A stretch of 64,000 nucleotides of DNA from Candidatus Gastranaerophilales bacterium (GTDB taxonomy: Bacteria; Cyanobacteriota; Vampirovibrionia; Gastranaerophilales; Gastranaerophilaceae), in the NCBI GenBank assembly GCA_900769355.1, contig CAAGGG010000068.1:7478-71477 (forward strand), given 5' to 3'. Position 1 is the first letter of the stretch. Each line of letters begins with the position of its first letter. Positions 2,063 to 62,810 of this stretch are shown piece after piece. The translations under genes were made by a program, and so were the position numbers. Below the pieces are notes generated by a model. That model made no database searches, was not told the origin of the DNA, and saw only the letters and a list, made by a program, of their open reading frames with translations.

Positions 2063-2106
2063 GAAAAATTCCTTTTTACTTACTTAAGTAATATAAATAA
2101 CGGCTC

Positions 2107-2115
2107 GGGGGGGGG
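2107..2115. repeat. G9 homopolymeric tract (C9 on the coding strand of the downstream minus gene), followed by CAATC
   Basis: Read directly from the sequence. It lies 45-55 nt upstream of the ATG at 2062, inside a putative TTGCCC-17-TATATT promoter spacer. Confidence 0.8.
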
Positions 2116-2308
2116 CAATCTTTAACTTTTTTATCTTAATATTAAGGAAAAGTTACAAAAATTTTGACAAAAACCATGAAAACATTTTATTAAAGAGGGT
2201 ATGTCAAGGTTTAATAAAGAAAATTTAAGAAATAGGTACTTGATTTTTATTTTTTACGGAGCATAATATAGATGTTGAGTGTATTTGCTCAACGTACAAA
2301 TTAAATAT

Positions 2309-4558: not shown

Positions 4559-4827
4559 TGGACGAGTATTTTAAATATGGACCTCTTATAATAATGCTAC
4601 TTGGTTTTCTTTGGCAATACAGAATCTTTGTTACTCCAGAACAACTTGAAAAAAAACACCGTGAAATTTTGAGAGAGTGCCGAGATGAATTTGTATCTAT
4701 TGAAGTTTTTAAGGAATTTCAATCAGAAACAAAGGAAGATTTTAAAGAGGTAAAACAGGGTATTGCTGATTTATACAGTAATACAAATGATATTAAAGAA
4801 ATTTTGATGCGAGGGGCAAACAAATGA
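4558..4827 (+). CDS. Holin-like small membrane protein
   Basis: 89 aa with a single N-terminal TM segment (GPLIIMLLGFLWQY). It sits immediately upstream of, and overlaps, the lysozyme gene. Confidence 0.45.
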   Translation: MDEYFKYGPLIIMLLGFLWQYRIFVTPEQLEKKHREILRECRDEFVSIEVFKEFQSETKEDFKEVKQGIADLYSNTNDIKEILMRGANK

Positions 4828-5447
4828 AAACTAGTAACAATGGACTTGCTATAATTAAACATTTTGAAGGTTGTAGCTTAAAAGCATATAAACCAATCCC
4901 TGCTGAAAAAGAATACACTATTGGCTGGGGACATAAATCTTCTGACATAAAATCTGGCATGGTAATATCACAAGAATTAGCTGACAATTTGCTGATTCAA
5001 GACGTTTCTGTTGCCGAAAAATGTGTTCATAAGTTTGTTATAGTCCCACTTACGCAAAATCAATTTGATGCACTTGTTAGCTTTTGCTATAACATCGGCA
5101 GTTATGCATTTAGAGCCTCAACACTTGTCGCAATGCTGAATGCAAATAAATATATTGAAGCATCAAATCAGTTTAGCCGTTGGGTTAAAGGTGATAACGG
5201 CAAAATTTTACAAGGTTTAGTCAAAAGACGAAATATGGAAAAGGAATTATTCCTTAAAGATAGTTGTAAAAAAGCTAAAGTTACGGCTACTGTCTTAAAT
5301 ATTAGGACTGGTGCCGGAACAAATTATAAAGTTGTTGGATATTTACCGAAAAATGCAATAGTGAGCCTCACAGATGCTTCAAATGGTTTTGCGAAATTAT
5401 TAGATGGAAGAGGTTGGGTTTCTCAAAAATATTTAACTTACATGTAA
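4824..5447 (+). CDS. Phage endolysin: GH24 (T4-type) lysozyme with a C-terminal SH3b cell-wall-binding domain
   Basis: Catalytic N-terminus LAIIKHFEGCSLKAYKPIPAEKEYTIGWGH plus QFDALVSFCYNIG. The C-terminal segment ATVLNIRTGAGTNYKVVGYLPKNAIV..GWVSQKYL is SH3b-like. Confidence 0.85.
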   Translation: MKTSNNGLAIIKHFEGCSLKAYKPIPAEKEYTIGWGHKSSDIKSGMVISQELADNLLIQDVSVAEKCVHKFVIVPLTQNQFDALVSFCYNIGSYAFRASTLVAMLNANKYIEASNQFSRWVKGDNGKILQGLVKRRNMEKELFLKDSCKKAKVTATVLNIRTGAGTNYKVVGYLPKNAIVSLTDASNGFAKLLDGRGWVSQKYLTYM

Positions 5448-6640: not shown

Positions 6641-6685
6641 CTCATAACCCGAAGGTCGTTGGTTCAAATCCAGCTCCCGCAACCA
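6641..6685 (+). repeat. Partial tRNA-fMet 3' half (att site duplicate)
   Basis: Exact 45-bp copy of 2341-2385. Confidence 0.9.
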
Positions 6686-6756
6686 TTTTAAAGGGATTGA
6701 TTTAAGGACTTGTCTATGAATTTATCCCTTTTATTGTTGATTGACTTTGGATATAT

Positions 6757-9175: not shown

Positions 9176-9284
9176 AACATAACCTCATCTTTCAATTATC
9201 ATTCTAACATATTTTTTAAGAATTTCAACCCTTGTGGTGGATAGAATTATAAAAGGTTGAAATTTGTTTGAAAATAGGGTAAGA

Positions 9285-9738
9285 TGAATATACATGAATA
9301 ATTCAACCGAAACAAACTATGCATCTATGCCTCTTGGCATCTTTGCATCTAAATCATTTTTTCGCAAGACTAATCTTGGCGGGGTAGGTACCCCGCCCTA
9401 CGTTGCTTCCTATAAAATAAGTATAGACAAATGAATAAAAACGGGTATAATAACACATGTGCACAGTAAAAAAGAAGGTGAGCTTTGTTACGAGAAATTT
9501 ATTTAGAAATGCTTTAGGGGGGGGCAAGCGTCTAGGATTTCGTTTAGTAGAGGGGGTTAATGATTTAGTAGCTAGCCGTCTAGCCGCCTTCACTCTCGCT
9601 GAAGTCTTAATTACCCTCGGCATTTCGATTATTGAAATAATATTATCAAAACGCCAAAGAGTTAATTTTACTCCTTGGCATTTTGATTTAAGTTATTTGC
9701 CGCAGGACGTACATTTTGGTTGTACGGGGGCAATGTAA
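9285..9738 (+). pseudogene. Scrambled remnant of a long-leader type IV pilin-like gene
   Basis: A leader fragment MNNSTETNYASMPLGIFASK.. ends in a stop at 9427. The G8-CAAGCGTCTAG motif is at 9516. A..AAFTLAEVLITLG (9585) then degenerates. Confidence 0.6.
9516..9523. repeat. G8 tract followed by CAAGCGTCTAGG
   Basis: Same motif as 14879-14899. Confidence 0.8.
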
Positions 9739-13302: not shown

Positions 13303-14691
13303 ATGTTGAGATTAGACTACCGTGGCGCAGATGAGATGGTAATCGGGAGTGAAAACGGATTAAATATTAAAGAAAAGTTTGAACAATACAAAGAAACTAT
13401 CGCTAATATTATATCTGATTTGAACAAACGAAAAGATAAACCTGGTCAGTGGTTACAGTGGTTGAATTTAGGCTATAATGAAGAAACTCTTTGGTATGTA
13501 AAAGAATATGCTTCTATGGTGCAGGGGCGATTTGAAAATGTTTTGGTTTTAGGTATCGGCGGTTCTGCACTCGGTGGACTTGCGATGTCCGAAGCACTTT
13601 TGAAACCGTATTGGAATTTCCTTTCAGAAGAGCAACGTAACGGGCTTCCTAGAATTTTCTTCTTGGATAATATTGATCCTGACACAATGGTTGGTTTGCT
13701 TAATACATTGGATTTGAGTAAAACTTTGGTTAATGTTATTACAAAATCAGGTTCGACTGCTGAGACAATGTCGCAATTTATGATTGTGAAAAATATTCTT
13801 GAACAAGAACTTGGCGCAAATTACAGATATAATATTGTTGCAACAACTGATAAAAAGACTGGAATTTTAAGACAAATTGCAGAGCAAGAAGGTTATAAAA
13901 CTTTTGTTGTGCCAGATGATGTTGGCGGGAGATTTTCAGTTTTTTCTGCGGTTGGGCTTGTGCCTCTTGCGTTAGTCGGAATTGATATTGATGAAATTAT
14001 GAACGGTATTAAGGACATGGATTTGGCATTGAAAAACACTGACGTTTTTGAAAATATTGCGGCACAAAATGCTCTAATTCATTATCTGATGGATACTGAA
14101 AAAGGTAAGAATTTGGCTGTTATGATGCCGTATTCAAGCCGTTTGAAATATGTGTCTGACTGGTTCGTGCAACTTTGGGCTGAGTCTTTAGGCAAGAATA
14201 AAGACAAAGGCGGAAATGATGTTCATATTGGTCCAACACCTATCAAAGCTCTTGGTGCGACAGACCAACACTCACAAATTCAGTTGTATAACGAAGGACC
14301 GAATGATAAAGTTATTAATTTTATAAGGGTTGCAGAGTTTGATAATATTTTGGAAATTCCAAATATTTTTGAATATACAGGGATTGGTTACCTTGGCGGA
14401 AAAACAATTAACCAGTTGATAAATGCTGAAGCAGATTCAACAAGAGTTGCATTGGCGGATTACAATAGACCGACTGTAACGATCACGTTGGACAAGGTTG
14501 ACGGATATAATGTTGCCCAATTGTTGTATATGTTGGAAGTTCAGACTGCGATTGCCGGGGAGTTATATAATATTAATACTTTTAATCAACCTGGGGTTGA
14601 ACAAGCAAAAAATTATACTTATGCGTTGATGGGTAGAATGGGTTACGAAGAGTCTGCCCAAATGCTTAAAGAAAAAATGGCGACTGTGTAA
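13303..14691 (+). CDS. pgi: Glucose-6-phosphate isomerase
   Basis: Motifs VLGIGGSALG, GGRFSVFSAVGL and bacterial PGI length. The start is placed at ATG 13303 (SD AAAGGGGA). The track's GTG 13246 lies inside a TTGTAT-16-TATAAT promoter. Confidence 0.9.
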   Translation: MLRLDYRGADEMVIGSENGLNIKEKFEQYKETIANIISDLNKRKDKPGQWLQWLNLGYNEETLWYVKEYASMVQGRFENVLVLGIGGSALGGLAMSEALLKPYWNFLSEEQRNGLPRIFFLDNIDPDTMVGLLNTLDLSKTLVNVITKSGSTAETMSQFMIVKNILEQELGANYRYNIVATTDKKTGILRQIAEQEGYKTFVVPDDVGGRFSVFSAVGLVPLALVGIDIDEIMNGIKDMDLALKNTDVFENIAAQNALIHYLMDTEKGKNLAVMMPYSSRLKYVSDWFVQLWAESLGKNKDKGGNDVHIGPTPIKALGATDQHSQIQLYNEGPNDKVINFIRVAEFDNILEIPNIFEYTGIGYLGGKTINQLINAEADSTRVALADYNRPTVTITLDKVDGYNVAQLLYMLEVQTAIAGELYNINTFNQPGVEQAKNYTYALMGRMGYEESAQMLKEKMATV

Positions 14692-14714
14692 GTATTTCAT
14701 AATACCAGGCTTGA

Positions 14715-14750
14715 AAACGGTTTAAAAATATGTTAAAATGAACTTATAAG
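14715..14750 (+). promoter_or_regulatory. Sigma70-like promoter TTGAAA-17-TAAAAT
   Basis: Read from the sequence. It precedes a strong-SD uORF and the pilin locus. Confidence 0.5.
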
Positions 14751-14803
14751 AATAGAGAAATTAGGTCAGTCATTACCTGATAATCTGGATAAGGAGATTT
14801 TTG

Positions 14804-14899
14804 ATGAAATTTGAGAAGTCGTTGGAGTTGTTAAAAAATGAAAGCAACCTGATTGACGAGTGGAGCGGCACGCTCCTCGGGGGGGGGGCAAGCGTCTAG
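14804..14899 (+). other. 31-codon uORF (MKFEKSLELLKNESNLIDEWSGTLLGGGASV*) reading through a G10 tract and stopping at TAG immediately after it
   Basis: SD AAGGAG lies 7 nt upstream of ATG 14804. The G10 tract at 14879-14888 encodes GGG. The +1 frame (ORF track 14860 onward) is open for 136 codons into the pilin ATG at 15268. Confidence 0.45.
14879..14888. repeat. G10 homopolymeric tract followed by CAAGCGTCTAGA
   Basis: Counted directly from the sequence. Confidence 0.85.
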
Positions 14900-15267
14900 A
14901 ATCCTCGCCCCAACGGGGAGAGGAAGCAATCGTTAGCGAGCGGTTAGCGAGTGTTACGAGTGCAGGTGAGGGGAATTTAGATGTCAAGATATCCAGAGGC
15001 ATAGATGTAAAGTCTGTTACTGGAAAAATAAATTGTCACGCACCTCTCTCCGAGGGAGAGGTGGTTTCATCTATCCAATCGACCCCCTCACCCGAATTTC
15101 TAAATTCACTACCGTTCATTAAGAAATTCTACCCTACTCCCCTTTGGGGTGAGGGTAAGTTTACAAAAGTTTCTCACGACAATAGCTGCAATTCACGTCA
15201 TTCTGAGCGTCAGCGAAAGAATCCAGCTTATTTATTGTATAATACAAGTAAATTGAAAGGAATACAC

Positions 15268-16206
15268 ATGAATAATTTAACCGAAACAGCCCAGCCATCT
15301 ATGCCTCTTGGCATCTTTGCATCTAAATATGATGTCGGCATAGCAATGCCGACCTACTTTGCTGTTTACCCATCTAAATCTTCCCTGACAAGGGAAGACT
15401 TAAGTTTCGGTAAAATTGTGCATTATAATAATTTCAACTTAACAGAAACGGTCCATTCACCATTCACTACTCACAATTCACTTAAAAAATCTGCCTTCAC
15501 ATTGGCGGAGGTTCTCATCACTCTCGGCATAATTGGCGTTGTTGCGGCACTTACTTTGCCATCTGTAATAAACAAATATCGTAGTTTTGTGCTGGAACAA
15601 CAGTTTAAAAAATCCTATTCAAATCTTTCGCAGACTATTATAAATATGAAGCGTGATTCTGGTCTGGAACATTTGAGAGATAATTATGTTCATTATGACA
15701 CAAATTCCGGTTATGATTCTACATTGGTAAAAGCTTTTTATGATAGTTTTGACAGTCACATAGCACCTGTTGATAAGTTGAAAAAGATATATTCAGTTAC
15801 AAATTATAGTGGAACAGGAACATCAGCCACTGATTATGGGTACGATTGGCCACGAGCTCTTTTTGTTTTAGCCGATGGAAGTAGTATTGGACGTCTTGTT
15901 AATAACGGTTGTTTGCTTTTTTGGATTGATACAAATGGGCCTTACAAAAAACCTAATCGTTATGGCTTTGATATTTTTGAACTTAGAGTTTGTGACAGTA
16001 CAGATGCTTTAAAGCCTGTTAAGGCATATAAAAACAATTATACCGATGAGGAGTTGGAAAAAGAACAGTTTCCGTATATTGTAGGTGCTCCTTGCACAAA
16101 AAATTCCAAACAACTGCTAAACGGCATAGGTTGTTCTTGGTATGCGTTGAACAATATTAATCCAGATGATGAGTCGAAAAAATACTGGGATAGTTTACCT
16201 TGGTAA
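15268..16206 (+). CDS. Type IV pilin-like protein (prepilin-type N-terminal cleavage/methylation domain) with an unusually long, roughly 75-aa leader
   Basis: Starts MNNLTETAQPSMPLGIFASK, continues to KKSA|FTLAEVLITLGIIGVVAALTLPS (Glu+5), and has the C-terminal motif IDTNGPYKKPNRYGFDIF. SD AAAGGAA; TGTATAAT extended -10 at about 15229. Confidence 0.75.
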   Translation: MNNLTETAQPSMPLGIFASKYDVGIAMPTYFAVYPSKSSLTREDLSFGKIVHYNNFNLTETVHSPFTTHNSLKKSAFTLAEVLITLGIIGVVAALTLPSVINKYRSFVLEQQFKKSYSNLSQTIINMKRDSGLEHLRDNYVHYDTNSGYDSTLVKAFYDSFDSHIAPVDKLKKIYSVTNYSGTGTSATDYGYDWPRALFVLADGSSIGRLVNNGCLLFWIDTNGPYKKPNRYGFDIFELRVCDSTDALKPVKAYKNNYTDEELEKEQFPYIVGAPCTKNSKQLLNGIGCSWYALNNINPDDESKKYWDSLPW

Positions 16207-16281
16207 ACTCTTAAATAGCCCTTGACTCTCCGGTTTGTTGCGTGTATTTTGGTTATACGAGAGATTTTGGGGAGATAATAT

Positions 16282-17661
16282 ATGGAAGAAAACAATGTTT
16301 TAAAGAAGTTTACAACAGCTCAGTTTTTGAACTTTGCGCTAGGTTTTTTTGGATTACAGTTTGCTTGGCAGATGAGAATTATTTTGTCAGGACCGGTTAC
16401 GGAAGGGCTTGGAGCTTCTCCGTTTATTTACGGGCTAATTTGGCTTGCGGGGCCATTTACAGGAATGGTTGTTCAGCCGCTTGTTGGTGCATTGAGTGAC
16501 AAAACTGTTTCTCCGCTTGGCAGACGTCGTCCTTATTTGTTAGGTGGTGCTTTGTTGGCGTCTTTGGCGTTGTTAATTTTTCCTAATTCCGGTGGAATTG
16601 CTGATGGTTTGGCAAGTTTGACAGGTTTGCATTTGCCGACTGTTACAGGTTTATTGATTGCTGCAATTATGATTTGGGTAATTGATGCGTGTGTAAACGT
16701 TGCACAAGGTCCTTATAGAGCGTTAATTCCTGATGTAGTGCCGGAAGAACAATATTCAATCGCAAATTCTTATATAAGTCTTGCAATCGGCTTAGGTTCT
16801 GTTGTTGCGGCTGGTACAGCTCCGTTTTTGAAATGGGCTTTTGGGTATCAAATGTCAATCCCTGCACAGTTTGTAATGGCTGCTTTGGCGTTTACACTTG
16901 GTATGATTTGGACTTGCATTACTATAAAAGAGTGCAAAAGAGAGCACGAAAATAAACAAGAAGCTGCTCAGAATAATGTTTCTTTCTGGCAGTCTTTGAA
17001 AGAGTTTTTTGCGTTGTCGCCTGAGGTTTCAAAAATATGTACAATGCAGTTCTTCACTTGGATTGGGACAATGTGTATGATGATTTTCTTTACACAGTAT
17101 GCGGTTCATACAATCTATTGTGTGCCTGATTTGACAACTGTTTCTGAGTCTACAAAAGAACTTTATGCACAAGCAACTTTGACTGGAACTAATTTTTCAT
17201 CAATTTGTTTTGCAATATTTAATTTGATTTGTTTTATCGTTGCAATTCCAATCGGATTTTTGTCGGCGAAGTTTTCAAATAAAAAAGTTCATATTATTTC
17301 AATAATAACAATGATTTTGGCTTATTTGGGAATGTTTTTCGCAAAAGATCCAAAAGCCGTTGCAGCTTTGATGGGCTTGTCAGGTATTGGCTGGGCAAGT
17401 ATTTGTGCATTGCCGTTTGCGATGCTTTCTCAATTTATTAAAAAAGGTACGGAAGGTTCTGTAATGGGAATTTTCAATATCTTTATCGCAGGTCCGCAAG
17501 TGTTTGTTTGCACACTTGTTGCATGGATTATTTCAAAATGCTCATTCACAATGGGATCTGACTACATTAACTACCACTGGGAATATGCATTTGTAATCGG
17601 TGCGGTTTGCCTTGCAATTGCGGCTGTAATCGCTTCTATGGTTAAGGAAAAGGTTCAATAA
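16282..17661 (+). CDS. MFS/GPH-family transporter (sucrose/glycoside symporter-like, 12 TM)
   Basis: LGRRRPYLLGG motif after TM2, 12 predicted hydrophobic segments, 459 aa. Confidence 0.7.
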   Translation: MEENNVLKKFTTAQFLNFALGFFGLQFAWQMRIILSGPVTEGLGASPFIYGLIWLAGPFTGMVVQPLVGALSDKTVSPLGRRRPYLLGGALLASLALLIFPNSGGIADGLASLTGLHLPTVTGLLIAAIMIWVIDACVNVAQGPYRALIPDVVPEEQYSIANSYISLAIGLGSVVAAGTAPFLKWAFGYQMSIPAQFVMAALAFTLGMIWTCITIKECKREHENKQEAAQNNVSFWQSLKEFFALSPEVSKICTMQFFTWIGTMCMMIFFTQYAVHTIYCVPDLTTVSESTKELYAQATLTGTNFSSICFAIFNLICFIVAIPIGFLSAKFSNKKVHIISIITMILAYLGMFFAKDPKAVAALMGLSGIGWASICALPFAMLSQFIKKGTEGSVMGIFNIFIAGPQVFVCTLVAWIISKCSFTMGSDYINYHWEYAFVIGAVCLAIAAVIASMVKEKVQ

Positions 17662-19061
17662 TGACTGAAAAAAAACGAATTCTTTTAATATATCCGCCAT
17701 CGCCTGTTATGAATAGAGAGGACAGGTGTCAGCAACCGACAAAGGATTTGATTGTAATTCCGCCTTTGCCACCGACTGACTTGATGTATCTGGCATCTGT
17801 TGCTGAGCAGGTTGGGTTTGAGGTAAAAATCGAAGATTACAGTCAGGGTGGCGATTTGGAATATGATTTACGAGAATTCAGACCTGATTATTTGGTTGTA
17901 AATATTGCAACTCCGACGCTTGAAAACGATTTAGATGCCGTAAAACGAGCAAAAGAGCTTAATCCGCACATCGTGACAATCGCAAAAGGTGCGGCGTTCT
18001 TGACTCTTGGAGAAAAAATCCTGAAAGAACATGATTTTCTCGATTTTGGAATTCTTGGCGAAGCAGAAGATACTTTGAAGGAAATCCTTGAAGGACGTGA
18101 AAAATCAGAAATTCTCGGAATTTATTATTGTGAAAACGGAGAGGTGAAATTTACTGGAAAACGTCCGTTTATTGAAGATTTGGACAGACTTCCATTCCCT
18201 GCTCGTCATCTTGTGGATAACAATATTTATAGACGCCCTGACAACAACAAAGTTCAGGCGACAATTAAGGTTGAGCGCGGTTGCCCGTTCCATTGCTTCT
18301 TCTGCCTTGCAACACCTGTTTCAGGAGCGAAAGTCAGACGCAGAAGTGCAGAAAATATTGTTGCAGAAATTAAAGAATGTGTAGAAAAATATAACATTCG
18401 GAATTTCTTGTTCTGGTCAGATATCTTCAATCTTGATAAAGAGTGGACGATGAACTTGTGCCAAGCAATAATTGAAAGTGGGCTAAAAATTACTTGGTCT
18501 GCAAACACCAGAGCCGACACAGCTGACTTGGAGATGGCAAAATTGATGTACAAATCTGGTTGCCGTCTTGTAAGTATCGGTGTTGAGAGCGGTTCACAAG
18601 AAATGCTTGAAAAAATGGGTAAAAACATTACGCTTGACGATGTTAGGAATACGGTTAAAATCTTTAAGCAAGCAAAGATCAGAATTTACAATTACTTTGT
18701 AATCGGGTTGCCTTGGGAAACAGAAGAGACGGTTGAGGAAACAATTAAATTCGCAATTGAGTTAGATAGCGATTTTATAAGTTTTTATACTGCGACTCCG
18801 CTTCCAGGGTCAAGATTTTATGATTATGCCAAAGAGCATAATTTATTTGATAACGAAACATCTTTTGAAAGTGCATATTTTTATCCGTCAGTAAATACGC
18901 ATTACTTGTCAAAAGACAGAGTTTTTGAATTGCACAAGTCTGCAATAAAGAGGTTTTATTTAAGGCCAAGATATGTTTTGAGAATGCTTAGCCGAATAAG
19001 ATCTTTTGAAGAGGTTAAAAACTACTTCATTGCGGGAATGAATGTATTGTTAAGAAGATAG
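17661..19061 (+). CDS. B12-binding-domain radical SAM enzyme
   Basis: N-terminal B12-binding Rossmann-like region (ILLIYPPSP...). Radical SAM cluster motif GCPFHCFFC. 466 aa. The start overlaps the stop of the MFS gene. Confidence 0.8.
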   Translation: MTEKKRILLIYPPSPVMNREDRCQQPTKDLIVIPPLPPTDLMYLASVAEQVGFEVKIEDYSQGGDLEYDLREFRPDYLVVNIATPTLENDLDAVKRAKELNPHIVTIAKGAAFLTLGEKILKEHDFLDFGILGEAEDTLKEILEGREKSEILGIYYCENGEVKFTGKRPFIEDLDRLPFPARHLVDNNIYRRPDNNKVQATIKVERGCPFHCFFCLATPVSGAKVRRRSAENIVAEIKECVEKYNIRNFLFWSDIFNLDKEWTMNLCQAIIESGLKITWSANTRADTADLEMAKLMYKSGCRLVSIGVESGSQEMLEKMGKNITLDDVRNTVKIFKQAKIRIYNYFVIGLPWETEETVEETIKFAIELDSDFISFYTATPLPGSRFYDYAKEHNLFDNETSFESAYFYPSVNTHYLSKDRVFELHKSAIKRFYLRPRYVLRMLSRIRSFEEVKNYFIAGMNVLLRR

Positions 19062-19083
19062 AAGATGATTTGGAGGATATAAA

Positions 19084-19692
19084 ATGAAAAACGCGTTTAC
19101 ATTGGCAGAAATTCTTATAACAATGGGGATTATTGGCGTTGTTTCGGCAATGACAGTCCCTGCATTAAATCAGAGTTGGCAAAGAGATGCTTATACAACA
19201 CAATTGAGAAAGGTTTATTCTGAAGTTGCTCAGGCAGCAGTTCGTTTAAAAACTGATAAAAACGTTCAATCTTTGGCAGAAGCGAGAATAACTTCAAATA
19301 ATATTAGAGAAGAATTTATACACAAATATTTTGTAGTGTTAAGAGATTGTCCATTAATTACTGGTTGTTTTCCAAATTCATATAAGACGGTAGGCGGTAC
19401 TACAGTAACAACTGATTCAACATCATTTGATACTTGTAGTAGTTCTGTAATTGCAAGTGGTGCTGCATTATGTTATCGAGTTGTTGGCGACCGAATTCGT
19501 ATTATTGTTGATGTTAATGGTACTAAAGATCCTAATATTTTTGGACGTGATGTATTCGCAATGGAGGTTTTACCAAATGGAAAAGTTCAAGATTCTGATA
19601 ATGGATCAGTATTTAATCCAAATGCAACCAGTATTAGGAAGGTTTATGCGTTGGGACGAATAATAAATGATGGTTGGAAGATGACATATTAA
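19084..19692 (+). CDS. Type IV pilin-like protein (short leader)
   Basis: Starts MKNA|FTLAEILITMGIIGVVSAMTVPAL. Motif VDVNGTKDPNIFGRDVF; C-terminal DGWKMTY shared with 50657. Confidence 0.8.
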   Translation: MKNAFTLAEILITMGIIGVVSAMTVPALNQSWQRDAYTTQLRKVYSEVAQAAVRLKTDKNVQSLAEARITSNNIREEFIHKYFVVLRDCPLITGCFPNSYKTVGGTTVTTDSTSFDTCSSSVIASGAALCYRVVGDRIRIIVDVNGTKDPNIFGRDVFAMEVLPNGKVQDSDNGSVFNPNATSIRKVYALGRIINDGWKMTY

Positions 19693-19786
19693 TAAAGTTT
19701 TTACAAAGTATAAAATTTTTATGACTAAAAAAGCTCTCGAATACTCGGGAGCTTTTTGGTGATTATGATTATGATTTAGAGAGTTT

Positions 19787-20419
19787 TTAATTTAGAATAA
19801 ATCCACCTTTATCAGCGTTTTGAAGATTTTCACCTTCTATTTTGGCTCTAAGGTTTTTAATATATTTGTAAACATAATCTCTTGGCAAATCAAGTAATGC
19901 TGCTAAGTCTTTTGCATAAACAATTTTACCTTTGTTTTGTTCAAAATAGTTGAATACACGTTGTTCTCTGTCAGTAAGTGCTTTTTTGAAAACAACTTTA
20001 ACTTCTTCTCTAAGGTTTTCTGCTTTAACAGCCTGTTTTTCTTCATTTTTAGCAACTTTTTTGGCAGAAACTTTAGCTTCTTTTACCTTAGCTTTTTCTG
20101 CTTTTGCTTTTTTTGTTTCTTCGGCTTTTACATCTTCATCAATTTTAATTTTATGAATAGAGAAAGGAGTTGGAGCTATTTCTTGTTCTCTTTCATAAGC
20201 TCTTTCAGCTATAGCACTCAATCTTTCAGCGTGATTTTGTTTCCATTCTGGTTCATTAGAAACAACAGGTTTTCCCTTTAGCACTATATCAATTAAATCG
20301 TTTGTAGGCTTAGCCTCTTCTATCTTTTTCCCTAATCTGGCAGCGAATTCTTCTAATGTAATCTTTTCCAATGAGCTTCTCCATTGTTTAATCTCTTCCT
20401 TGCTCAAGTATTCAGACAT
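19787..20419 (-). CDS. Putative DNA-binding protein with a C-terminal HTH and a KA-rich linker
   Basis: C-terminal LTDREQRVFNYFEQNKGKIVYAKDLAALLDLPRDYVYKYIKNLRAKI is sigma-R4/LuxR-like. A central Lys/Ala/Glu low-complexity segment is present. Confidence 0.5.
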   Translation of the reverse strand: MSEYLSKEEIKQWRSSLEKITLEEFAARLGKKIEEAKPTNDLIDIVLKGKPVVSNEPEWKQNHAERLSAIAERAYEREQEIAPTPFSIHKIKIDEDVKAEETKKAKAEKAKVKEAKVSAKKVAKNEEKQAVKAENLREEVKVVFKKALTDREQRVFNYFEQNKGKIVYAKDLAALLDLPRDYVYKYIKNLRAKIEGENLQNADKGGFILN

Positions 20420-20545
20420 TCACTAATCTCCTATAACTATGTGTCTCTTTCTATTCTTCTAATGTAGCATAAACCATGCTCCATGATTCAAAATGTTTCA
20501 CAACGTAAATTTTTGTTTTTTATTGTAACGTTTTTGTTTTACGAA

Positions 20546-20669
20546 GTCGTTATTCTGAAAGCTTAGAAAAATATTCTAAGCGATTAGCGAAGAATAATTT
20601 TTCTTGCTATTCAGAATCTCTTGCGAAATAGAATAGACTCCGGATCGGAGTCCGGAGTGACAGTTACGG
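20546..20669. repeat. Palindromic repeat unit of the ATTCTGAA...TTCAGAAT + ACTCCGGATCGGAGTCCGGAGTGAC family
   Basis: A second copy lies at 21409-21512, with the shared tail tagactccggatcg(g/t)agtccggagtgac(a/t)gttacg. Confidence 0.7.
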
Positions 20670-20703
20670 TTAGTTGTTTTGCGAAAATTGCAATTATTTT
20701 ATT

Positions 20704-20960
20704 CGTCATTCTTGTATGTGTTAAGTAATTCGTTGACAAAAATTTTAATCAACTACCCACTCTCATTCTCTCCCTAATTGAGGGAGAGAAGCTATACCTT
20801 GCAACTATCTCTGTTTATAATCCTGTATAGCAGCAATTTATGAATTTCAATTTATACAAAACATAAGTCTTCCCTCGGTTAGGGAAGATTTAGATGGGTA
20901 AACAATATTACGAGATAGTCTATTTTGTCAACGAATTACTTAACACATACAAGAATGACG
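20704..20960. mobile_element. 257-bp non-coding MITE-like element with 38-bp perfect terminal inverted repeats
   Basis: Left TIR 20704-20741 (cgtcattcttgtatgtgttaagtaattcgttgacaaaa) is the exact reverse complement of 20923-20960. It contains an internal hairpin repeat (cccactctc..ctctccctaattgagggagagaagct) that is also at 34325-34400. Confidence 0.7.
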
Positions 20961-21408: not shown

Positions 21409-21512
21409 GTCATTCTGAAAAGACTGAAAATCAAGCGTGTAGCGTCGATTTTCGTCTTATTCAGAATCTACTATTAATAGACTCCGGATCGTAGTCCGGA
21501 GTGACTGTTACG
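21409..21512. repeat. Second copy of the palindromic repeat unit (see 20546-20669)
   Basis: gtcattctgaaaagac...gtcttattcagaatc hairpin followed by the actccggatcgtagtccggagtgactgttacg tail. Confidence 0.7.
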
Positions 21513-24197: not shown

Positions 24198-24270
24198 TCG
24201 ACCCCTCTCCCGAATTCGTAATGTTCACTAGCGTTCGCAAACGACTTCGACCTCTTCCCTTGGAGAGGTG
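24198..24270. repeat. Roughly 72-bp GC-rich hairpin repeat (cccctctcccgaattcgtaatg..cttcccttggagaggtg), copy 1
   Basis: Near-identical copy at 24746-24816, a diverged copy at 24890-24958, and inverted partial copies at 24320-24350 and 24860-24888. Confidence 0.75.
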
Positions 24271-24361
24271 TGTTTAACAAGCTATTCTCGCCTAGGGAGA
24301 GAAAGTAGCCGTTTGAGCGGAGCGAATTACGGATACAAGAGAGGGGTTAATAGGTTTTGGG

Positions 24362-24703
24362 TTAAATCATCAACCTTCTTATATATTCTAAAACTCCTTC
24401 TAAATTATTAATATTATCGTTAGTAATTCTTACAACTTTATATCCTTTACTTGCAAGATATTCATCGCGTTCTTTGTCATAATTGCTGTTTTCAAAATGC
24501 TGAGAACCATCTAATTCAATAATCAACTTATTATCTGTACATAAAAAATCTACTATATAATTTTCAATAGGTACTTGTCTTTTGAATTTAAATCCCAAAA
24601 ATCGTTTTGCTCTTAAATTTTGCCATAGTAATAGTTCAAAGTCAGTCATGTTTTGTCTTAAATCTTTGGCATAATTTAGGATTTTTTTGTTTTGCTTTTT
24701 CAT
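24362..24703 (-). CDS. DUF559 / Vsr-like endonuclease-domain protein
   Basis: 113 aa. Motifs LWQ.LR...GFKFKRQ, IVDF.C....LIIELDG..H and YLASKGYKVVRI are typical of DUF559. Confidence 0.65.
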   Translation of the reverse strand: MKKQNKKILNYAKDLRQNMTDFELLLWQNLRAKRFLGFKFKRQVPIENYIVDFLCTDNKLIIELDGSQHFENSNYDKERDEYLASKGYKVVRITNDNINNLEGVLEYIRRLMI

Positions 24704-24745
24704 TGGCTGAATTATAGCATGAAATTGTTTTGTTGTTAATTAGCT

Positions 24746-24816
24746 AACCCCTCTCCCGAATTCGTAATGCTCACTAGCGTTCGCAAACGACTTCGACCTC
24801 TTCCCTTGGAGAGGTA
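24746..24816. repeat. Copy 2 of the roughly 72-bp hairpin repeat flanking DUF559
   Basis: See 24198-24270. Confidence 0.75.
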
Positions 24817-25042
24817 AATTTGTCTAAAATAGTAGCAATGCAAAGGTTCTCTCTCCTAGGGAGAGAGCTAGAGAGAGGGGGGAATTCATTCGACCCCTCT
24901 CCCGCAGTCATAATGATTACAGCAGTTCGCGAAGAACTTCGACCTTTCGAGAGGTGTGTTTTTATATAAAACAAATAGAGACTCAGTGAAAACCGAGTCT
25001 CTATTACATGTTTTTGAATTAGCTTGACTAATTCTATACTTT

Positions 25043-34324: not shown

Positions 34325-34400
34325 TTACCCACTCTCTTTCTCTCCCTAATTGAGGGAGAGAAGCTTTGCCTTGCAACTGGTCCCGTTTATAATTCTGTAA
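34325..34400. repeat. Copy of the hairpin repeat shared with the interior of the 20704-20960 element
   Basis: Sequence ttacccactctctttctctccctaattgagggagagaagctttgccttgcaactggtcccgtttataat, compared with 20754-20830. Confidence 0.7.
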
Positions 34401-50656: not shown

Positions 50657-51471
50657 TTACCAAGGATACGTAATTTTCCAGCCATCTTGCATGATTTTTG
50701 CAGCGCAAGCTGTCCCAGAAGAATTACAATTTGAATTTATTTCTGCTGTGGTATTTGAGTATAAATCGGCTCTTACAATGCCGTCTTTAAAGTCAATCCA
50801 AAATCTAAAAAGGTCTTTTCCAAAAACATTTGGAGATTTTATACCATTGATATCAACTACAACTTCTTGTTTGGGGTTAAACATTGGCGTCCAGTGTTCT
50901 CCCCACTTTGTGAGTAAGATAAAATAAGTAACGCCGTCAGGAGTTGAAAAAAAAATTCTTCCGGCTGAATAGTTTGTGTAAATTGAAGTGTCATACGTTC
51001 TTCCGTTTTTATATTTGTATGCTATATTGCTTCCTTGCCAAGGACCACTTGGTGAAGTGTCGACATTTGCGCCATTAAAATATGGTAGCCAGTAAGTGTC
51101 AAAAAATTCTTTAACCGACTTTTGGGTGGCAACTGTTTCTTCAGTAAAATTGACTACGTCGTTGTCTGCAAGTGATTTTTGCGCGATTTGTCCGAGAGCA
51201 GAATACGCTTTTTTGAGCTTGGTTACAGTGACTTGTTTTTGGTAATTCTGGATAATAGTTGGAATAGTCAATGCTGCAACAGCGCCTATGATCCCGAGGG
51301 TGATTAGAACTTCAGCCAATGTAAAAGCGGCTCGATGCAGCTTGTCACAGAGGGCTACGTGCGTAGCACCGCTTCCTAGCTTCCTAGCTGCTTCTACAAC
51401 AGACTTTGCCTCATTTTGTTGTTTTAATGAGCTCTCGGGGGGGGGGCAATCATGGAACTATTATTAATCAT
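50657..51471 (-). CDS. Type IV pilin-like gene with a C10 tract in codons 9-12. It is out of frame as sequenced (putative phase-variable, OFF).
   Basis: Promoter TTGACA-17-AATAAT (plus 51508-51536), SD GAGGAG, then ATG at 51471. The product is MINNSSMIAPPPRAH* with 10 C. With 11 C it would be in frame with ...ESSLKQQNEAKSVVEAARKLGSGATHVALCDKLHRA|AFTLAEVLITLG.. and the rest of the pilin domain (VDINGIKSPNVFGKDLF, C-terminal DGWKITY). There is no canonical internal start. Confidence 0.6.
51437..51446. repeat. G10 (C10 on the coding strand) homopolymeric tract followed by CAATC
   Basis: Counted from the sequence. Same ctc-Gn-caatc context as 2107-2115. Confidence 0.85.
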
Positions 51472-51538
51472 TCTTTTTAACTCCTCTTATTCTTAACGTA
51501 TAAATTTATTATTTACGATATTTTGTGATTTGTCAACT

Positions 51539-57973: not shown

Positions 57974-58071
57974 AGGCAGCTAGGCGTTTAGATGCCAAGA
58001 TGCTTAGAGGCAAAGATGCGAAGCCTGTTTAGTTAAGTTGTTAGGTTACTAAGGCACTAAGGTCATTTAAA

Positions 58072-58168
58072 AATAAGCTGGATTCTTTCGCATTCGCTCA
58101 GAATGACGTGAATATCAGCTATTTTCGTCATTCTGAGGCTCTCCAGAGCCGAAAGAATCCAGCTTATT
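58072..58168. repeat. Roughly 97-bp near-perfect palindromic MITE/REP-like element (AATAAGCTGGATTCTTTCG ... CGTCATTCTGAG ... CGAAAGAATCCAGCTTATT)
   Basis: Outer arms are 19-bp perfect inverted repeats. Inner 12-bp inverted repeat CTCAGAATGACG/CGTCATTCTGAG. Half-copies lie at 15196-15236 and 61822-61866, directly upstream of pilin genes. Confidence 0.75.
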
Positions 58169-59082: not shown

Positions 59083-59985
59083 ATGTCGGCTTTGGTAAGC
59101 AAGGATTTGAGTCGCGAAAAGAAGCAGTTGTTCGGCTTTTTGAATATTTATAAGCCTGTCGGAATGACATCACATGATGTTGTTGCTGCTTTGCGACGTG
59201 TTACAAAAATTAAACAAATCGGACACACAGGTACGTTGGATCCTTTTGCTGAAGGGGTTTTACCAATTTGTGTCGGAAAAGCTACTCGATTAATCGAATA
59301 TTTGCAAGATGATAAGGAATACCTTGCAACAGTGCAGTTTGGAGCTTCTACAAACACATTTGATTTAGATGGTGAAAAAACATCTGTTTCTGGTAAAAAA
59401 GTAACAAAATCACAGGTGGAAGAAGCATTAAAGGCATTTTCTGGAGAAATTTCTCAGTTGCCACCGATTTTTTCTGCGATAAAGGTGAAGGGTAAAAAGC
59501 TTTATGAGTATGCAAGAAAAGGCGAAGAAGTTGAAATTCACCCGCGGAAAGTTGTAATTGAAAATATTGAACTGAAAGTGTTTGATGAAGAAAATCAACA
59601 AGCTCAAATTCTGATAAAATGCTCAAAAGGAACTTATATTCGCTCTATTGCCAACGATTTAGGACAAAATCTCGGTTGTGGCGGATATTTGGTTAAGTTA
59701 ATTCGGACTCAAGCTGGAAGTTTCAGGGTTGAAGACAGTTTCCAACTTGATACGGTTGAGGTTGAGAAAAATTTTGTTAATCCGTTAGACGTACTGAATT
59801 TGCCAAAAATTGCAGTGAAAGATAAGGATTTAACAAAAATTAAAAATGGCATGCCGATTGAGTTTTCGCCTCGAGAAGACATAAAATTTGGAAATTTTGT
59901 AATTTTGGTATATAATAATGTCGAAATCTGCGCTGTTGGAGTTGCAGATAATGACAAAATAAAATTAAAGAAAGTGTTTTTATAA
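59083..59985 (+). CDS. truB: tRNA pseudouridine(55) synthase
   Basis: Motifs GFLNIYKPVGMTSHDVV, GHTGTLDPFAEGVLPICVG and PPIFSAIKVKGKKLYEYAR. Confidence 0.95.
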   Translation: MSALVSKDLSREKKQLFGFLNIYKPVGMTSHDVVAALRRVTKIKQIGHTGTLDPFAEGVLPICVGKATRLIEYLQDDKEYLATVQFGASTNTFDLDGEKTSVSGKKVTKSQVEEALKAFSGEISQLPPIFSAIKVKGKKLYEYARKGEEVEIHPRKVVIENIELKVFDEENQQAQILIKCSKGTYIRSIANDLGQNLGCGGYLVKLIRTQAGSFRVEDSFQLDTVEVEKNFVNPLDVLNLPKIAVKDKDLTKIKNGMPIEFSPREDIKFGNFVILVYNNVEICAVGVADNDKIKLKKVFL

Positions 59986-60842
59986 TGAAAAAGATTATTT
60001 TAGGATTAGTATTATTGCTTGTTGCTCAGAATGTTCAGGCAAAAGATTGTGAAACATTAAAATGTCCTGCACCTTATGATTTAACGTCAGGTTTTTCTCG
60101 TGGGGTCAGTACTGTGACAGGTCAAAATTTTTTGGCAGAGCGAATTGGAGAAAGTTTAACTAAAAAAGCAATTAAGAAAAATATTACAAGCGGAGATGTG
60201 AAAGTTAAACTGGACTCTTTCAGTACAAGAGATTTGAAGGCCGGAAGGTTTAAGTCGCTTGAAATAATTGGTAAAAATGCTAATGTACAGGGCGTTTATA
60301 TCTCATCTTTTGATGCGAAAACGCTTTGCAATTTTAACTACGTAGCACCTGATAAAAAAGGAAATTACGTTGTAAAAGAAGATATTCCGCTTTCTTTTGA
60401 AGCTGAAATTACAGAAGATGACTTGAACAAAACTATGCAATCTTCTGATTACAAACGTATGATTGATGATTTGAACGGTGTTACGGGCGGATTGAATTTA
60501 TTTGAAATAACTTCTACTCGTGTAAAATTGAGAAATAACAAAATGTATTACGTTATGAATTATGCAATTCCTTTTGTGCGTAAGACAAAACAGCTTGTTA
60601 TCAGTGCTGATTTGAAGGTTGAAAACAACAAAATCTTACTCGCAAATACAACTTTTATGAATAACACAATGTCATTAGATGTTGATAAACTTTCAAGATT
60701 GTTTAATTATATTAACCCACTTGATTTTTCTGCTAAAATATTGGAGAATAAAGAGGCAAAATTTAGCGTAGAAACAGTCAAGATTTCTGACGGAAAAATA
60801 AAAATTGATGGAAAAGCGACAATTCTAAAGGATAAGGAATAG
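59985..60842 (+). CDS. Secreted hypothetical protein (285 aa)
   Basis: Signal peptide MKKIILGLVLLLVAQNVQA and no confident family. Confidence 0.45.
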   Translation: MKKIILGLVLLLVAQNVQAKDCETLKCPAPYDLTSGFSRGVSTVTGQNFLAERIGESLTKKAIKKNITSGDVKVKLDSFSTRDLKAGRFKSLEIIGKNANVQGVYISSFDAKTLCNFNYVAPDKKGNYVVKEDIPLSFEAEITEDDLNKTMQSSDYKRMIDDLNGVTGGLNLFEITSTRVKLRNNKMYYVMNYAIPFVRKTKQLVISADLKVENNKILLANTTFMNNTMSLDVDKLSRLFNYINPLDFSAKILENKEAKFSVETVKISDGKIKIDGKATILKDKE

Positions 60843-60845
60843 ATT

Positions 60846-61457
60846 ATGCGAAAGAATGAACGAGTTTTTTTAGGTGTTACAGCGGTTATAATGGTTGTTG
60901 TTTGCTGTGTTTTAGGTTTGAGAATGCTTTATCATAATGATGAAAATGTGTCAGGACCTTTGACGCCGGTTCCTGAAACTCAAATTCCACAAGAGCAAGA
61001 GGAGCAACCGGAAGTTCAAAAACCTGTGGAAAAAGTTTATGCCAATGTGTTTTTCATTGGACAAGACGGTTCTAAACAAGAAGTTTATAGAGCTGTAAAT
61101 CGTCAATATGACAAAGATGTAGATGGTTCAAAAATTAAGTTTGCAGTTCGTGCTTTGATTGCAGGTCCGACAGCTTATGAAAAATCAAAAGGAGTTTACT
61201 CTGAAATTCCTGCCGGAACTCGTGTTATTTCTATAACAGAAAGTTCTGACAAGGTTGTCATCAATTTGAACTCAGCGTTTGAAAACGGTGGTGGAACAGA
61301 TAGTTTGTACAAAAGGCTTTATCAGTTGATTAAAACTGCTAAACGAAACACAAATAAACCTGTTTACTTATACATTGAGGGACAAAAAGCAGATGTTATA
61401 GGTGGCGAAGGTATTATGATTACTCAGCCGTTGAATGAAAATTCGTTGGACGGTTAG
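60846..61457 (+). CDS. GerMN-domain protein
   Basis: N-terminal TM/signal. Segment VRALIAGPTAYEKSKGVYSEIPAGTRVISI...VVINLNSAF is GerM-like. Confidence 0.65.
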   Translation: MRKNERVFLGVTAVIMVVVCCVLGLRMLYHNDENVSGPLTPVPETQIPQEQEEQPEVQKPVEKVYANVFFIGQDGSKQEVYRAVNRQYDKDVDGSKIKFAVRALIAGPTAYEKSKGVYSEIPAGTRVISITESSDKVVINLNSAFENGGGTDSLYKRLYQLIKTAKRNTNKPVYLYIEGQKADVIGGEGIMITQPLNENSLDG

Positions 61458-61460
61458 CAG

Positions 61461-61730
61461 ATGGGTAACAAAGACTTAGATTACTACCTCGGACTTGATT
61501 GGAGCGTGATAGAGGGCGAAGATACCGATTTTGACGGTAATCCGTACCATTATATTGAGATAAAAGAAATTCCGAGTTTTTTGTTCTGTGCTAAAACTTC
61601 TGAAAGGGCAAGAGAACGATATAAACAGCAGCTTAAATGGACTTTGCAGGTAATGTTGGAAAGCGGAGAACATATTATTGAACCTGGAGAAGAAGACGAT
61701 GAACCTGATTGGGAAAATCTTTGTCCATAA
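61461..61730 (+). CDS. Acidic hypothetical protein (89 aa)
   Basis: ORF with no recognised motifs. Confidence 0.35.
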   Translation: MGNKDLDYYLGLDWSVIEGEDTDFDGNPYHYIEIKEIPSFLFCAKTSERARERYKQQLKWTLQVMLESGEHIIEPGEEDDEPDWENLCP

Positions 61731-61791
61731 GGAAGCTAAAATGTTGAGAAAGGACGAAGTTCTGAAAAAATAAGATATTAGAAGAACCTTC

Positions 61792-61801
61792 GGGGGGGGG
61801 G
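61792..61801. repeat. G10 homopolymeric tract followed by CAACTTCGAAG
   Basis: Counted from the sequence. It sits in the 5' region of pilin gene 61900, flanked by CTTCG/CGAAG. Confidence 0.85.
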
Positions 61802-61899
61802 CAACTTCGAAGACACGTTTAACGCGAATGAGAATTCTTCAGAGCCGAAAGAATCCAGCTTATTTATTGTATAATACAATTAAATTGAAAGGAATACAC

Positions 61900-62727
61900 A
61901 TGAATAATTTAACCGAAACAAACCACGCTTCTAAGTCTCTTGGCATCTTTGCATCTAAAACAGTTTCGTGTCGGCATAGCAATGCCGACCTACAAAAGAA
62001 AGTCGCGTTTACCTTAGCCGAAGTTCTCATTACCCTCGGCATCATCGGCGTTGTTGCGGCATTGACTCTTCCAACTGTCATTAAGTATTACAAGGCAAAG
62101 GTTTTGGAAACAGCATTCAAAAAAAGTGTCACAAACCTTTATCAAGCCTATGATCTCACAAGACAACAACTTGGTACTGATGAAATATACTCATATTATA
62201 CAATATATAGCAGCCAAACAAACTCATATCCAAATATACAAGAATTTCAAACAACCTTTGAAAATAATTTAAAAGTAATTAAAAATTCTACTAATTGGTG
62301 GGACTTTTATCCAATCTATAATTATAATAAGACCAAATTAACAACAGAAAACATTGGAACGGATTACCCTAATGCAACTAAAATTTTAGCAGATGGAAGT
62401 TCTTATAACATGCATGTAAATTTCGACGGAAATCAAATCGCAGTTCATATATATATTGATACAAATGGTCCATATAAAGGTCCAAATCAATATGGACATG
62501 ATATTTTTAAATTTCAAATCAGACATGATAATAAATTATCACCTGTAAAAATGAATAAATTATATACAGAAGAAGAACTTGAAAAAGCAAACTACAAAGA
62601 ATTAGTTGGCTATCCATGTTCTGTCAAAAGTAAACAAGCGACGAATGGTGCAGGGTGTTCTTATTACGCAATGAACAATATAAATCCTGATGATAATTCT
62701 AAAAAATATTGGGAAAGTTTGCCTTAA
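61900..62727 (+). CDS. Type IV pilin-like protein with a long MNNLTET leader (paralogue of 15268-16206)
   Basis: MNNLTETNHASKSLGIFASK...KKVA|FTLAEVLITLGIIGVVAALTLPTV. C-terminal motifs IDTNGPYKGPNQYGHDIF and NNINPDD.SKKYWESLP. The 5' cassette is near-identical to 15196-15345. Confidence 0.75.
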   Translation: MNNLTETNHASKSLGIFASKTVSCRHSNADLQKKVAFTLAEVLITLGIIGVVAALTLPTVIKYYKAKVLETAFKKSVTNLYQAYDLTRQQLGTDEIYSYYTIYSSQTNSYPNIQEFQTTFENNLKVIKNSTNWWDFYPIYNYNKTKLTTENIGTDYPNATKILADGSSYNMHVNFDGNQIAVHIYIDTNGPYKGPNQYGHDIFKFQIRHDNKLSPVKMNKLYTEEELEKANYKELVGYPCSVKSKQATNGAGCSYYAMNNINPDDNSKKYWESLP

Positions 62728-62804: not shown

Positions 62805-62810
62805 GAAATT

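Follow-up and report, generated by a model that had tools for sequence, protein, structure and literature searches.

A poly-G tract in the leader of a pilin-like gene of Gastranaerophilales: a probable phase-variation switch

Introduction

How is a gene for a pilin-like protein expressed when the strong start site ahead of it leads, through a run of ten G residues, into a stop codon, and the frame of the pilin itself lies open one nucleotide away? This question is raised by a locus of Candidatus Gastranaerophilales bacterium contained in a stretch of 64,000 nucleotides (nt) of contig CAAGGG010000068.1 (assembly GCA_900769355.1, positions 7,478 to 71,477), which was analysed at its full length and is referred to below as the window. 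The tract (G10) occupies positions 14879-14888 of the window, and the pilin-like gene can be called from an ATG at 15268. Gastranaerophilales are uncultured non-photosynthetic cyanobacterial relatives in human and animal guts and, to our knowledge, almost nothing is known about their surface biology. A first-pass annotation of this DNA had claimed that the insertion of a single G would produce an N-terminally extended pilin precursor, and it is argued here that the G10 tract is probably a functional slipped-strand phase-variation switch in the pilin leader, possibly additive to a basal internal start.

Anatomy of the locus

The following features, given with their positions in the window, make up the locus.

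14711..14739, plus strand: promoter-like TTGAAA-17-TAAAAT 5' of the leader start, with 10/12 consensus matches and TG before the -10
14791..14806, plus strand: Shine-Dalgarno (SD) sequence AAGGAG (14791-14796), then 7 nt to ATG 14804
14804..14899, plus strand: leader-start open reading frame (ORF), 31 codons in the OFF allele, peptide MKFEKSLELLKNESNLIDEWSGTLLGGGASV followed by a stop
14879..14888, plus strand: G10 homopolymer, the proposed switch; predicted ON lengths G11 or G8
14889..14899, plus strand: post-tract motif CAAGCGTCTAG, holding TAG in the OFF frame and encoding K-R-L-E in the pilin frame
14890..15267, plus strand: stop-free linker of 126 codons made of GC-rich hairpin-forming repeat modules, including a tandem 11-nt duplication at 14931-14952
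15255..15270, plus strand: internal SD-like GAAAGGAA, 6 nt before ATG 15268 (MNNLTET), a possible tract-independent start
15268..16206, plus strand: pilin-like gene, 312 amino acids (aa) from ATG 15268, with the class III signal motif KKSA↓FTLAEVLITLG

The promoter, the SD and the 31-codon ORF were all located as the first-pass annotation had described them. This ORF reads the tract as GGG GGG GGG G and stops at the TAG (14897-14899) within CAAGCGTCTAG, and the +1 frame is open from 14860 for 136 codons up to ATG 15268, from where it continues to 16206. Addition of one G or removal of two in silico at 14879-14888 fuses ATG 14804 to the pilin in an ORF of 467/468 codons. The promoter-like site, a candidate by consensus match only, is unchanged in two orthologous loci (L004 and L002), and a second copy of the post-tract motif lies at 9525-9535, where it follows a G8 tract and is read in frame as GKRLG. 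The sequence GGAGGTGGCG exemplifies a locked (interrupted) G10 run.

Two other roles for the tract were considered and rejected. A promoter-spacer homopolymer switch does not fit a tract which lies 140 nt downstream of the predicted promoter, after the SD-ATG and inside an ORF. Neither does a regulatory upstream ORF (uORF) acting through translational coupling, the alternative that had originally been offered alongside the fusion: 368 nt separate the stop at 14899 from ATG 15268 and, in relatives, the 'uORF' is the plain in-frame N-terminus of the pilin gene. A gathering-score search of the whole window against Rfam gave nothing relevant to the locus and no match in 14600-15600, for which the best sub-threshold match of an E-value search had E = 0.58.

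Natural tract-length alleles and fusions

The artificial G11 fusion was used as the query of a protein search, which returned thousands of pilin-like proteins, and members of the 90% clusters were used for a wider tally of distinct proteins. A metagenome scan with a pattern of leader start plus tract added two loci, L091 and L090. The alleles are listed below (sources: L002, ERZ28574829; L004, ERZ27297472; L091, ERZ1035032); for L002 to L005, the DNA bore out the tract lengths expected from the proteins.

L004: context PK-PGI-tract-pilin-MFS-rSAM, as in the window; G10; OFF
L002: context PK-PGI-tract-pilin-MFS-rSAM; G11; ON, fused gene called, 375 aa, start MKFEKSLELLKNESNLIDEWSGTLFGGGG
L003: same leader start in another context; G11; ON
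L005: other leader start; G11; ON
L091: 96.7% identity to the window over 6.4 kb; G8
L090: the L003 locus; G10

Orthologous loci thus carry G8, G9, G10 and G11, all three phases being present, and the absence of length variation that had been named as grounds for abandoning the idea was not found. Among the proteins, 22 begin MERHAPRGGG, which corresponds to a G10 allele in which the gene caller chose a GTG at -19; four begin MTSGAARSSGGG, corresponding to G9, a length that is carried by P0127 and P0153; and at least nine (P0008, P0010, P0015, P0022, P0128, P0130, P0159, P0163 and P0164) start at the SD-ATG leader and run via GGGG into AFTLAEVLITLG, as expected of G11.

These G11 alleles (P0128/P0130 and L002, for example) encode exactly the predicted fusion, MKFEKSLELLKNESNLIDEWSGTLLGGGG..., so that the extended precursor proposed for a single-G insertion does occur in nature. 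The leader peptide MKFEKSLELLKNESNLIDEWSGTLLGGGASV is joined in frame to the pilin in L002, L003, P0015, P0042, P0128 and P0130. P0015 begins with the upstream leader and proceeds in frame through GGGG into the pilin (MKFEKSLELLKNESNLIDEWSGTLFGGGGNRD…), and in P0042, P0008 and P0022 the leader is fused in frame with other bodies or leader starts. In P0128 and P0130 (440 aa) it is the window's own linker, RLESSPQRGEEAIVSERL…, that is fused in frame, and hence the product predicted for one additional G exists in other assemblies. Since L002 has no SD-ATG 3' of its tract, its pilin is translatable only from the upstream start. The same dependence is found more widely: in many homologues the position of the NNLTET module, with which the window's internal start begins, has no Met (KNENNSTET, GISINSTET), which makes the upstream start obligatory in those relatives.

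The long leader of the ON G11 allele P0022/L005 (NCBI GCA_977037515.1) also holds a truncated internal copy of the class III motif (…RTAFTLAEGATHVAHCDKYRRVAFTLAEVLITLG…), a pattern that, as judged from the sequence, points to the pilin N-terminus itself having undergone duplication or recombination. An exact look-up of PGI from ATG 13303 gave no match.

A lineage-wide arrangement

Is this arrangement peculiar to one gene? Searches of species-representative genomes with patterns of the pilin N-terminus yielded 80 loci, to which the window was added; most were titled Candidatus Gastranaerophilales or Melainabacteria, and the others were labelled 'uncultured bacterium' or had been assigned to bins with different names. 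Of the 92 pilin N-termini with enough upstream sequence, 47, representing 45 distinct loci, have a run of at least 7 G or 7 C at most 700 nt 5', and in 44 of these 45 an ATG with an SD of 4-6 nt (mostly 5-6 nt) precedes the tract by 21-85 nt. Between tract and AFTLAE motif, 42/45 loci have no stop in the pilin frame, compared with 6 and 3 for the two control frames; where tract and motif are at least 90 nt apart, the figures are 23/26 and 0 and 0 (0/52 control frames). The long leaders fall into 15 clusters without detectable similarity; 12 of these are open, unrelated ones of 217-447 nt among them. At the other extreme, the loci with short leaders consist of SD, ATG, 7-10 codons, the tract, 3-8 codons and [A/G]FTLAE, as in L012, which at G11 encodes MNKIYNSQNFGGGGTSVA↓FTLAE.

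Tract lengths in the survey were 10 (26 loci), 11 (9), 12 (6), 8 (3) and 13 (1). Six loci are ON, 27 need +1, 11 need -1 and one has no start, and every one of the 25 G10/C10 tracts with a start needs +1. In 533 kb of this DNA, 43 of the 45 runs of at least 8 G or C stand upstream of a pilin motif, although it was mostly for their pilins that the loci had been selected. The tracts share a sequence context, T-C-G(n)-C-A on the G strand: for 58 distinct G/C runs of at least 8 in the window and L001-L102, C is found at -1 in 51/58 and at +1 in 52/58, T at -2 in 41/58 and A at +2 in 42/58, in DNA with 17% C. The context holds whichever strand is coding and is therefore not a codon constraint.

The linker: an open frame in repeat DNA

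The 378 nt between the tract and ATG 15268 contain no stop in the pilin frame, as compared with 8 and 9 stops in the other plus-strand frames and 6-10 in those of the minus strand. Only 0.03% of 20,000 dinucleotide-preserving shuffles left this frame open (P about 3e-4), close to the chance of about 0.001 that had been roughly estimated beforehand. The linker has a GC content of 44% (genome, 35%), its RNA folds with z = -5.6, and its peptides in the pilin frame include GEEAIVSER and LASVTSAGEGNLDVK. A Pfam search of the leader gave no match.

Whether 14900-15267 is coding or a stop-poor repeat, the question left by the first-pass annotation, receives a divided answer: the frame is kept open, but the comparison of the window with L004 and L091 revealed no coding signature at the amino-acid level, and the region is built of repeat modules. 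The modules recur in opposite orientation elsewhere in the window (58071-58128, 57987-58018 and 20859-20904), the changes among relatives are mostly non-synonymous, and the block is missing from L002 and L001 and replaced in part in L004. For these reasons the linker is best described as generic hairpin-rich intergenic repeat DNA inserted into the leader and not as a conserved protein domain, and its sole conserved property is that it has no stops in the pilin frame. GC-rich hairpin-forming short repeat families (MITE- or REP-like), of the same general type as the modules of the pilin leader, are scattered intergenically in the window (24201-24961, 20754-20827 / 34326-34399 and 20632-20668 / 21476-21512).

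The 11-nt tandem duplication inside the linker (14931-14952; GTTAGCGAGCG / GTTAGCGAGTG) is a second slippage-prone site in the leader. L091 has a single copy of the unit, GTTAGCGAGCG, which shifts its linker frame, and because of this deletion a fusion is impossible in L091 at every tract length.

The pilin and its leader

The class III motif of the 15268 gene, KKSA↓FTLAEVLITLGIIGVVAALTLP, has F+1 at 15496 and E+5 at 15508. The protein matches TIGR02532 with 19.9 bits (cut-off 16.3) at residues 75-97 and PF07963 with 20.7 bits, slightly under the cut-off of 21.2, and it has both the [G/A]↓F-x-x-x-E motif and the hydrophobic helix of type IV pilins. The short hydrophilic leader of 6-26 aa ending in Gly is absent at this gene and is present in short-leader paralogues when ON, for example in L012. 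The long leaders of ON alleles (138-231 aa) are hydrophilic and net positive, without transmembrane-like segments. This fits class III signal peptides, whose hydrophilic leader is known to lie on the cytoplasmic side and to be cut at the cytoplasmic face (PMC4471445), and pilD and other pil genes have been reported for Gastranaerophilales genomes (PMC5877343). A leader that stays cytoplasmic and is cleaved off should matter little in its sequence as long as it can be translated.

The internal start belongs to a conserved module, …NN[LS]TET…S.PLGIFASK followed by a perfect 8-9 bp hairpin and CTAC, which is seen at 9240-9353, 15214-15357 and 61846-61993; the repeated NNLTET part itself extends over 9240-9353 and 61846-61959, and the module alone heads the paralogue at 61900. 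Its order relative to the G tract varies, since at 9295 it precedes the tract and at 15268 and 61900 it follows. The leader of the 15268 gene contains a partial second copy (NFNLTET, 15421-15470), and relatives have the module with or without the ATG. A start module, an RNA element and a recombination site are candidate roles.

Other tracts in the window

The window, with 35% GC, contains five runs of at least 8 G (12 matches of the G8 pattern as against 0.14 expected), four of which lie directly 5' of genes with a class III (prepilin) motif AFTLAEVLITLG.

T1, 2107-2115: G9 (C9 on the minus strand)
T1 surroundings, 2090..2118, minus strand: C9 within the 17-nt spacer of promoter-like TTGCCC-17-TATATT
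T2, 9517-9524: G8
T2 locus, 9457..9738, plus strand: frame of ATG 9457 runs on through G8 (…GGGKRLG…); truncated pilin-like ORF of 93 aa
T3, 14879-14888: G10, the tract considered above
T4, 51437-51446: G10 (C10 on the coding, minus strand)
T4 locus, 50657..51536, minus strand: promoter-like TTGACA-17-AATAAT, SD AAGAGGAG, ATG 51471, C10, pilin body
T5, 61792-61801: G10
T5 locus, 61792..62727, plus strand: G10 98 nt before ATG 61900 of a pilin paralogue

T4 offers the simplest case. With C10 the ORF ends after 15 codons (MINNSSMIAPPPRAH and a stop), a prepilin of 270/271 aa is expected from C11 or C8, and the gene has no credible start besides the out-of-frame SD-ATG 51471; the allele is thus predicted to be cleanly OFF. 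Among nine strains from different samples (the window and loci in the series L093-L101), C10 was found in eight, namely the window and seven orthologues, and C12 in one, and three different sequences, one in-frame 66-nt indel included, directly follow the tract. At T5 the pilin frame is open across the tract, but the upstream SD-ATG mini-ORF is separated from it by a TAA at 61771, so that no upstream start is left; P0029, an orthologue, has the upstream ORF in fusion. A 6S RNA gene (62809-62988; 47.8 bits in Rfam, gathering score 46.4) lies directly 3' of the 61900 paralogue.

T1 is of another kind. It is not in an ORF and lies 45 nt before ATG 2062 of a non-pilin gene with weak, sub-cut-off EF-hand and LysM matches, and it is the only tract of the window with the hallmark of a promoter-spacer switch. 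It may be a transcriptional (spacer-length) phase switch on that gene.

Proposed mechanism

Taken together, the most probable course of events is as follows. Translation would begin at the strong SD-ATG 14804. With G10, the window's allele, ribosomes would halt at TAG 14897 (OFF); with G11 or G8, they would read through the 126-codon linker and the NNLTET module into the class III motif, yielding a precursor of 467/468 residues. Its hydrophilic leader of ~231 residues would remain cytoplasmic and be cut away by prepilin peptidase, and because the leader is removed the mature pilin would be identical at any tract length. Within a population, replication slippage would alter the tract length, and a deletion bias in long G runs would hold most alleles at G10. 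In Campylobacter jejuni, changes from G11 to G10 occur at 38.8e-4 per division and those from G10 to G11 at 3.7e-4 (PMC3401435); with a bias of this type, if it applies here, a gene that is ON at G11 would have G10 in most of the population and be ON in a minority. If the basal start at 15268 is used, the ON state would raise expression above that level and lift polarity across 368 nt of structured RNA that otherwise goes untranslated. Of the testable features of phase variation by simple sequence repeats, a repeat of hypermutable type (a homopolymer of about 7 or more), an effect on the frame (also at 51437, C10 vs C11) and polymorphism in repeat number were all observed.

Several observations weigh against a functional switch or limit its scope. 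The length variation seen is between samples and strains and not within a single population; only 6/44 species-level alleles are ON, and no ON allele of T4 was found among the nine alleles including that of the window. The leader would be 76 aa long if translation began at ATG 15268 and, at G11, 231 aa long if it began at ATG 14804, set against 6-26 residues in the prepilins described so far (PMC4471445), and its residue -1 is Ala, not Gly. The differences in the linker among the window, L004 and L091 consist mostly of non-synonymous changes and module replacement. In addition, the internal SD-ATG 15268 may express the pilin regardless of the tract, which would make the switch partly redundant in this allele, and the deletion in L091, the closest strain, suggests that constraint has been relaxed and that the upstream switch is dispensable in this sub-lineage.

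Alternative explanations

Some of these points are accommodated by a reading in which the upstream parts are a decaying relic: the pilin would be expressed only from SD-ATG 15268, possibly by means of a local TATAAT at 15238-15243, and the remnant would still be open since the change was recent. The SD-like GAAAGGAA ahead of ATG 15268, the NNLTET module standing alone at the head of the 61900 paralogue and of a recombinant locus (L001), the L091 deletion that bars fusion at any tract length and the lack of an upstream start at 61792 all agree with it. However, a promoter scan gave no usable -35 near 15238, the promoter, SD and leader-start ORF are nearly invariant in L004 and L002, a frame of this length is rarely open by chance (3e-4), and G11 alleles occur with the window's own linker (P0128, P0130). 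On balance, we consider a relic unlikely.

Somewhat more doubtful is a dedicated, lineage-wide recoding or diversification system for the pilin-like genes. In it, an invariant T-C-G(n)-C-A, used in either orientation, would rest at G10, always one short of in-frame, and would be the dedicated site at which a specific factor or polymerase slippage acts. Leaders of up to ~230 residues of translated intergenic repeats would be tolerated and removed by the prepilin machinery, and the leader would serve as a free zone in which mobile repeats and recombination reshuffle expression cassettes between paralogues. L001 provides the example of such reshuffling. This contig from another sample (ENA ERZ27229671 k119_63271), compared with window positions 59847-61993 and 15214-20693, joins two loci of the window: the upstream context of the 61792 locus (LmeA, Germane, an 89-aa gene and G10) is attached to the 15268 pilin and its downstream genes, with 99.35% identity on one side and 99.98% on the other and with the crossover in a ~40-nt identical stretch of the NNLTET module. 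An assembly chimera was rejected, the shared stretch being ~40 nt in an assembly made with k=119, and the contig suggests recombination between pilin loci. The NNLTET copies are direct repeats 46.6 kb apart, and the junction is as would arise from a circle or duplication, or from another genome arrangement.

Recoding at the RNA level appears improbable. Here G10/C10 itself would be selected, and in part of the products the frame would be restored by RNA polymerase slippage or by -1 frameshifting on G GGG GGG, giving a low constitutive level of pilin in place of a heritable ON/OFF state. That all 25 G10/C10 tracts with an upstream start need exactly +1, and that T4 is C10 in 8/9 strains including the window despite differing downstream sequences, is what this would predict, and a G run fits the slippery pattern X XXY YYZ. 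The model is that of endosymbiont genes with frameshifts, in which, as Tamas and colleagues reportedly described in 2008, transcriptional slippage at poly(A) rescues the product, so that the RNA makes up for an out-of-frame homopolymer in the genome. The runs in question consist of A/T and lie in decaying genes, and bacterial transcriptional slippage is known mainly on A/T runs, whereas here G/C runs show genomic length polymorphism, with G8, G9, G11 and G12 alleles at the same loci. The excess of G10 would be accounted for by deletion bias, and a programmed -1 frameshift site was rejected, the slippery run being present but the 50 nt 3' of 45 tracts folding like shuffles (median z 0.08; 4/45 below -2), so that no RNA structure is enriched there.

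It is highly improbable that the tract works through transcription, or marks a boundary of recombination, and has no role in the reading frame, for instance as a protein-binding or structure-forming element 5' of the pilin promoter or as a hot spot of leader-cassette exchange. Conservation up to the tract with a mosaic straight after it, the T-C-G(n)-C-A context, which is kept whichever way the tract faces the gene, the position of the 2107 tract within a promoter spacer and the recombination between pilin loci in L001 could be cited in its favour, yet the 14879 tract lies well past the predicted promoter within an SD-ATG ORF, and the frame-specific absence of stops over up to 600 nt would be left unexplained. 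Finally, a chance open frame in stop-poor repeats (the linker being built of repeats, with 44% GC in a 35% GC genome) combined with a poly-G artefact of sequencing or assembly can practically be dismissed, given the shuffle P of 3e-4, the 6-10 stops in the other five frames and, excluding an artefact, the recurrence of tracts at orthologous sites of independent assemblies that different assemblers had produced.

Comparison with known systems

A close parallel to a slipped-strand switch in a pilin leader is Neisseria pilC, whose phase variation Jonsson and colleagues are said to have traced in 1991 to a poly-G tract in the region encoding the signal peptide. In both cases a G run lies in the 5', later-removed leader of a pilus gene, one G switches the frame, and length variants that stay in frame leave the mature protein unchanged. 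PilC, however, is a Sec-exported tip protein and not a class III (prepilin) subunit; it is encoded by one or two copies per genome, whereas about half of a large paralogue family is concerned here; it has no long repeat-derived linker, and its lineage is Proteobacteria, not Melainabacteria. Homopolymer length also tunes the expression of surface proteins in promoter-spacer switches, such as those of Bordetella fim, Neisseria opc/porA/nspA and Treponema pallidum tpr. In these systems, of which nspA is a documented case (PMC6389960), the tract lies between or beside -35 and -10, and the 14879 tract follows the SD-ATG.

The polyG/C contingency genes of C. jejuni (PMC3401435) resemble the present loci in several respects: their G/C runs are 8-12 long, most often 9-10, each genome has many such loci, some strains carry ON and others OFF alleles, and a deletion bias at G11 would yield an excess of G10-OFF alleles like that found here. 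They differ in their targets, mostly glycan-modifying enzymes with tracts in the enzyme body, as opposed to nearly only pilin-like genes and always the leader, and the C. jejuni study describes no conserved T-C-G(n)-C-A context (PMC3401435). As for the signal itself, the [A/G]↓FTLxE site, the ~21 hydrophobic residues with Glu5 and the cytoplasmic hydrophilic leader are those of class III signal peptides (PMC4471445), but known leaders have 6-26 residues and end in Gly, whereas those described here range from ~17 (short paralogues, ON) up to 138-231 residues, and -1 is often Ala.

A neighbouring element

Apart from the pilin loci, the window carries a tRNA-Met (2309-2385) whose 3' end is repeated directly 4.3 kb on (6641-6692; 52 nt, 94% identical). 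The segment between the repeats encodes a phage-type lysozyme with an SH3 domain (4824-5447) and looks like a small integrated element or prophage remnant at the tRNA.

Conclusions

No report tying Melainabacteria or Gastranaerophilales to phase variation was found in the literature library that was searched. The class of mechanism is known; what is new is the lineage, the near-exclusive targeting of a large family of pilin-like paralogues and the very long, junk-like leaders. Genes of this kind are routinely mis-called in annotation, through a GTG start inside the leader, truncation or a pseudogene label, and the consensus sequences of metagenome-assembled genomes hide an ON subpopulation. 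If the repeat leaders of 140-230 residues are translated and cleaved, they would stretch the range of class III signal peptides about ten-fold. With regard to the biology of these gut bacteria, a poly-G/C switch, mostly OFF, is indicated by the data for about half of the many pilin-like genes, which would imply a stochastic, combinatorial variation of pilus or pseudopilus subunits under pressure from host, phage or competitors.

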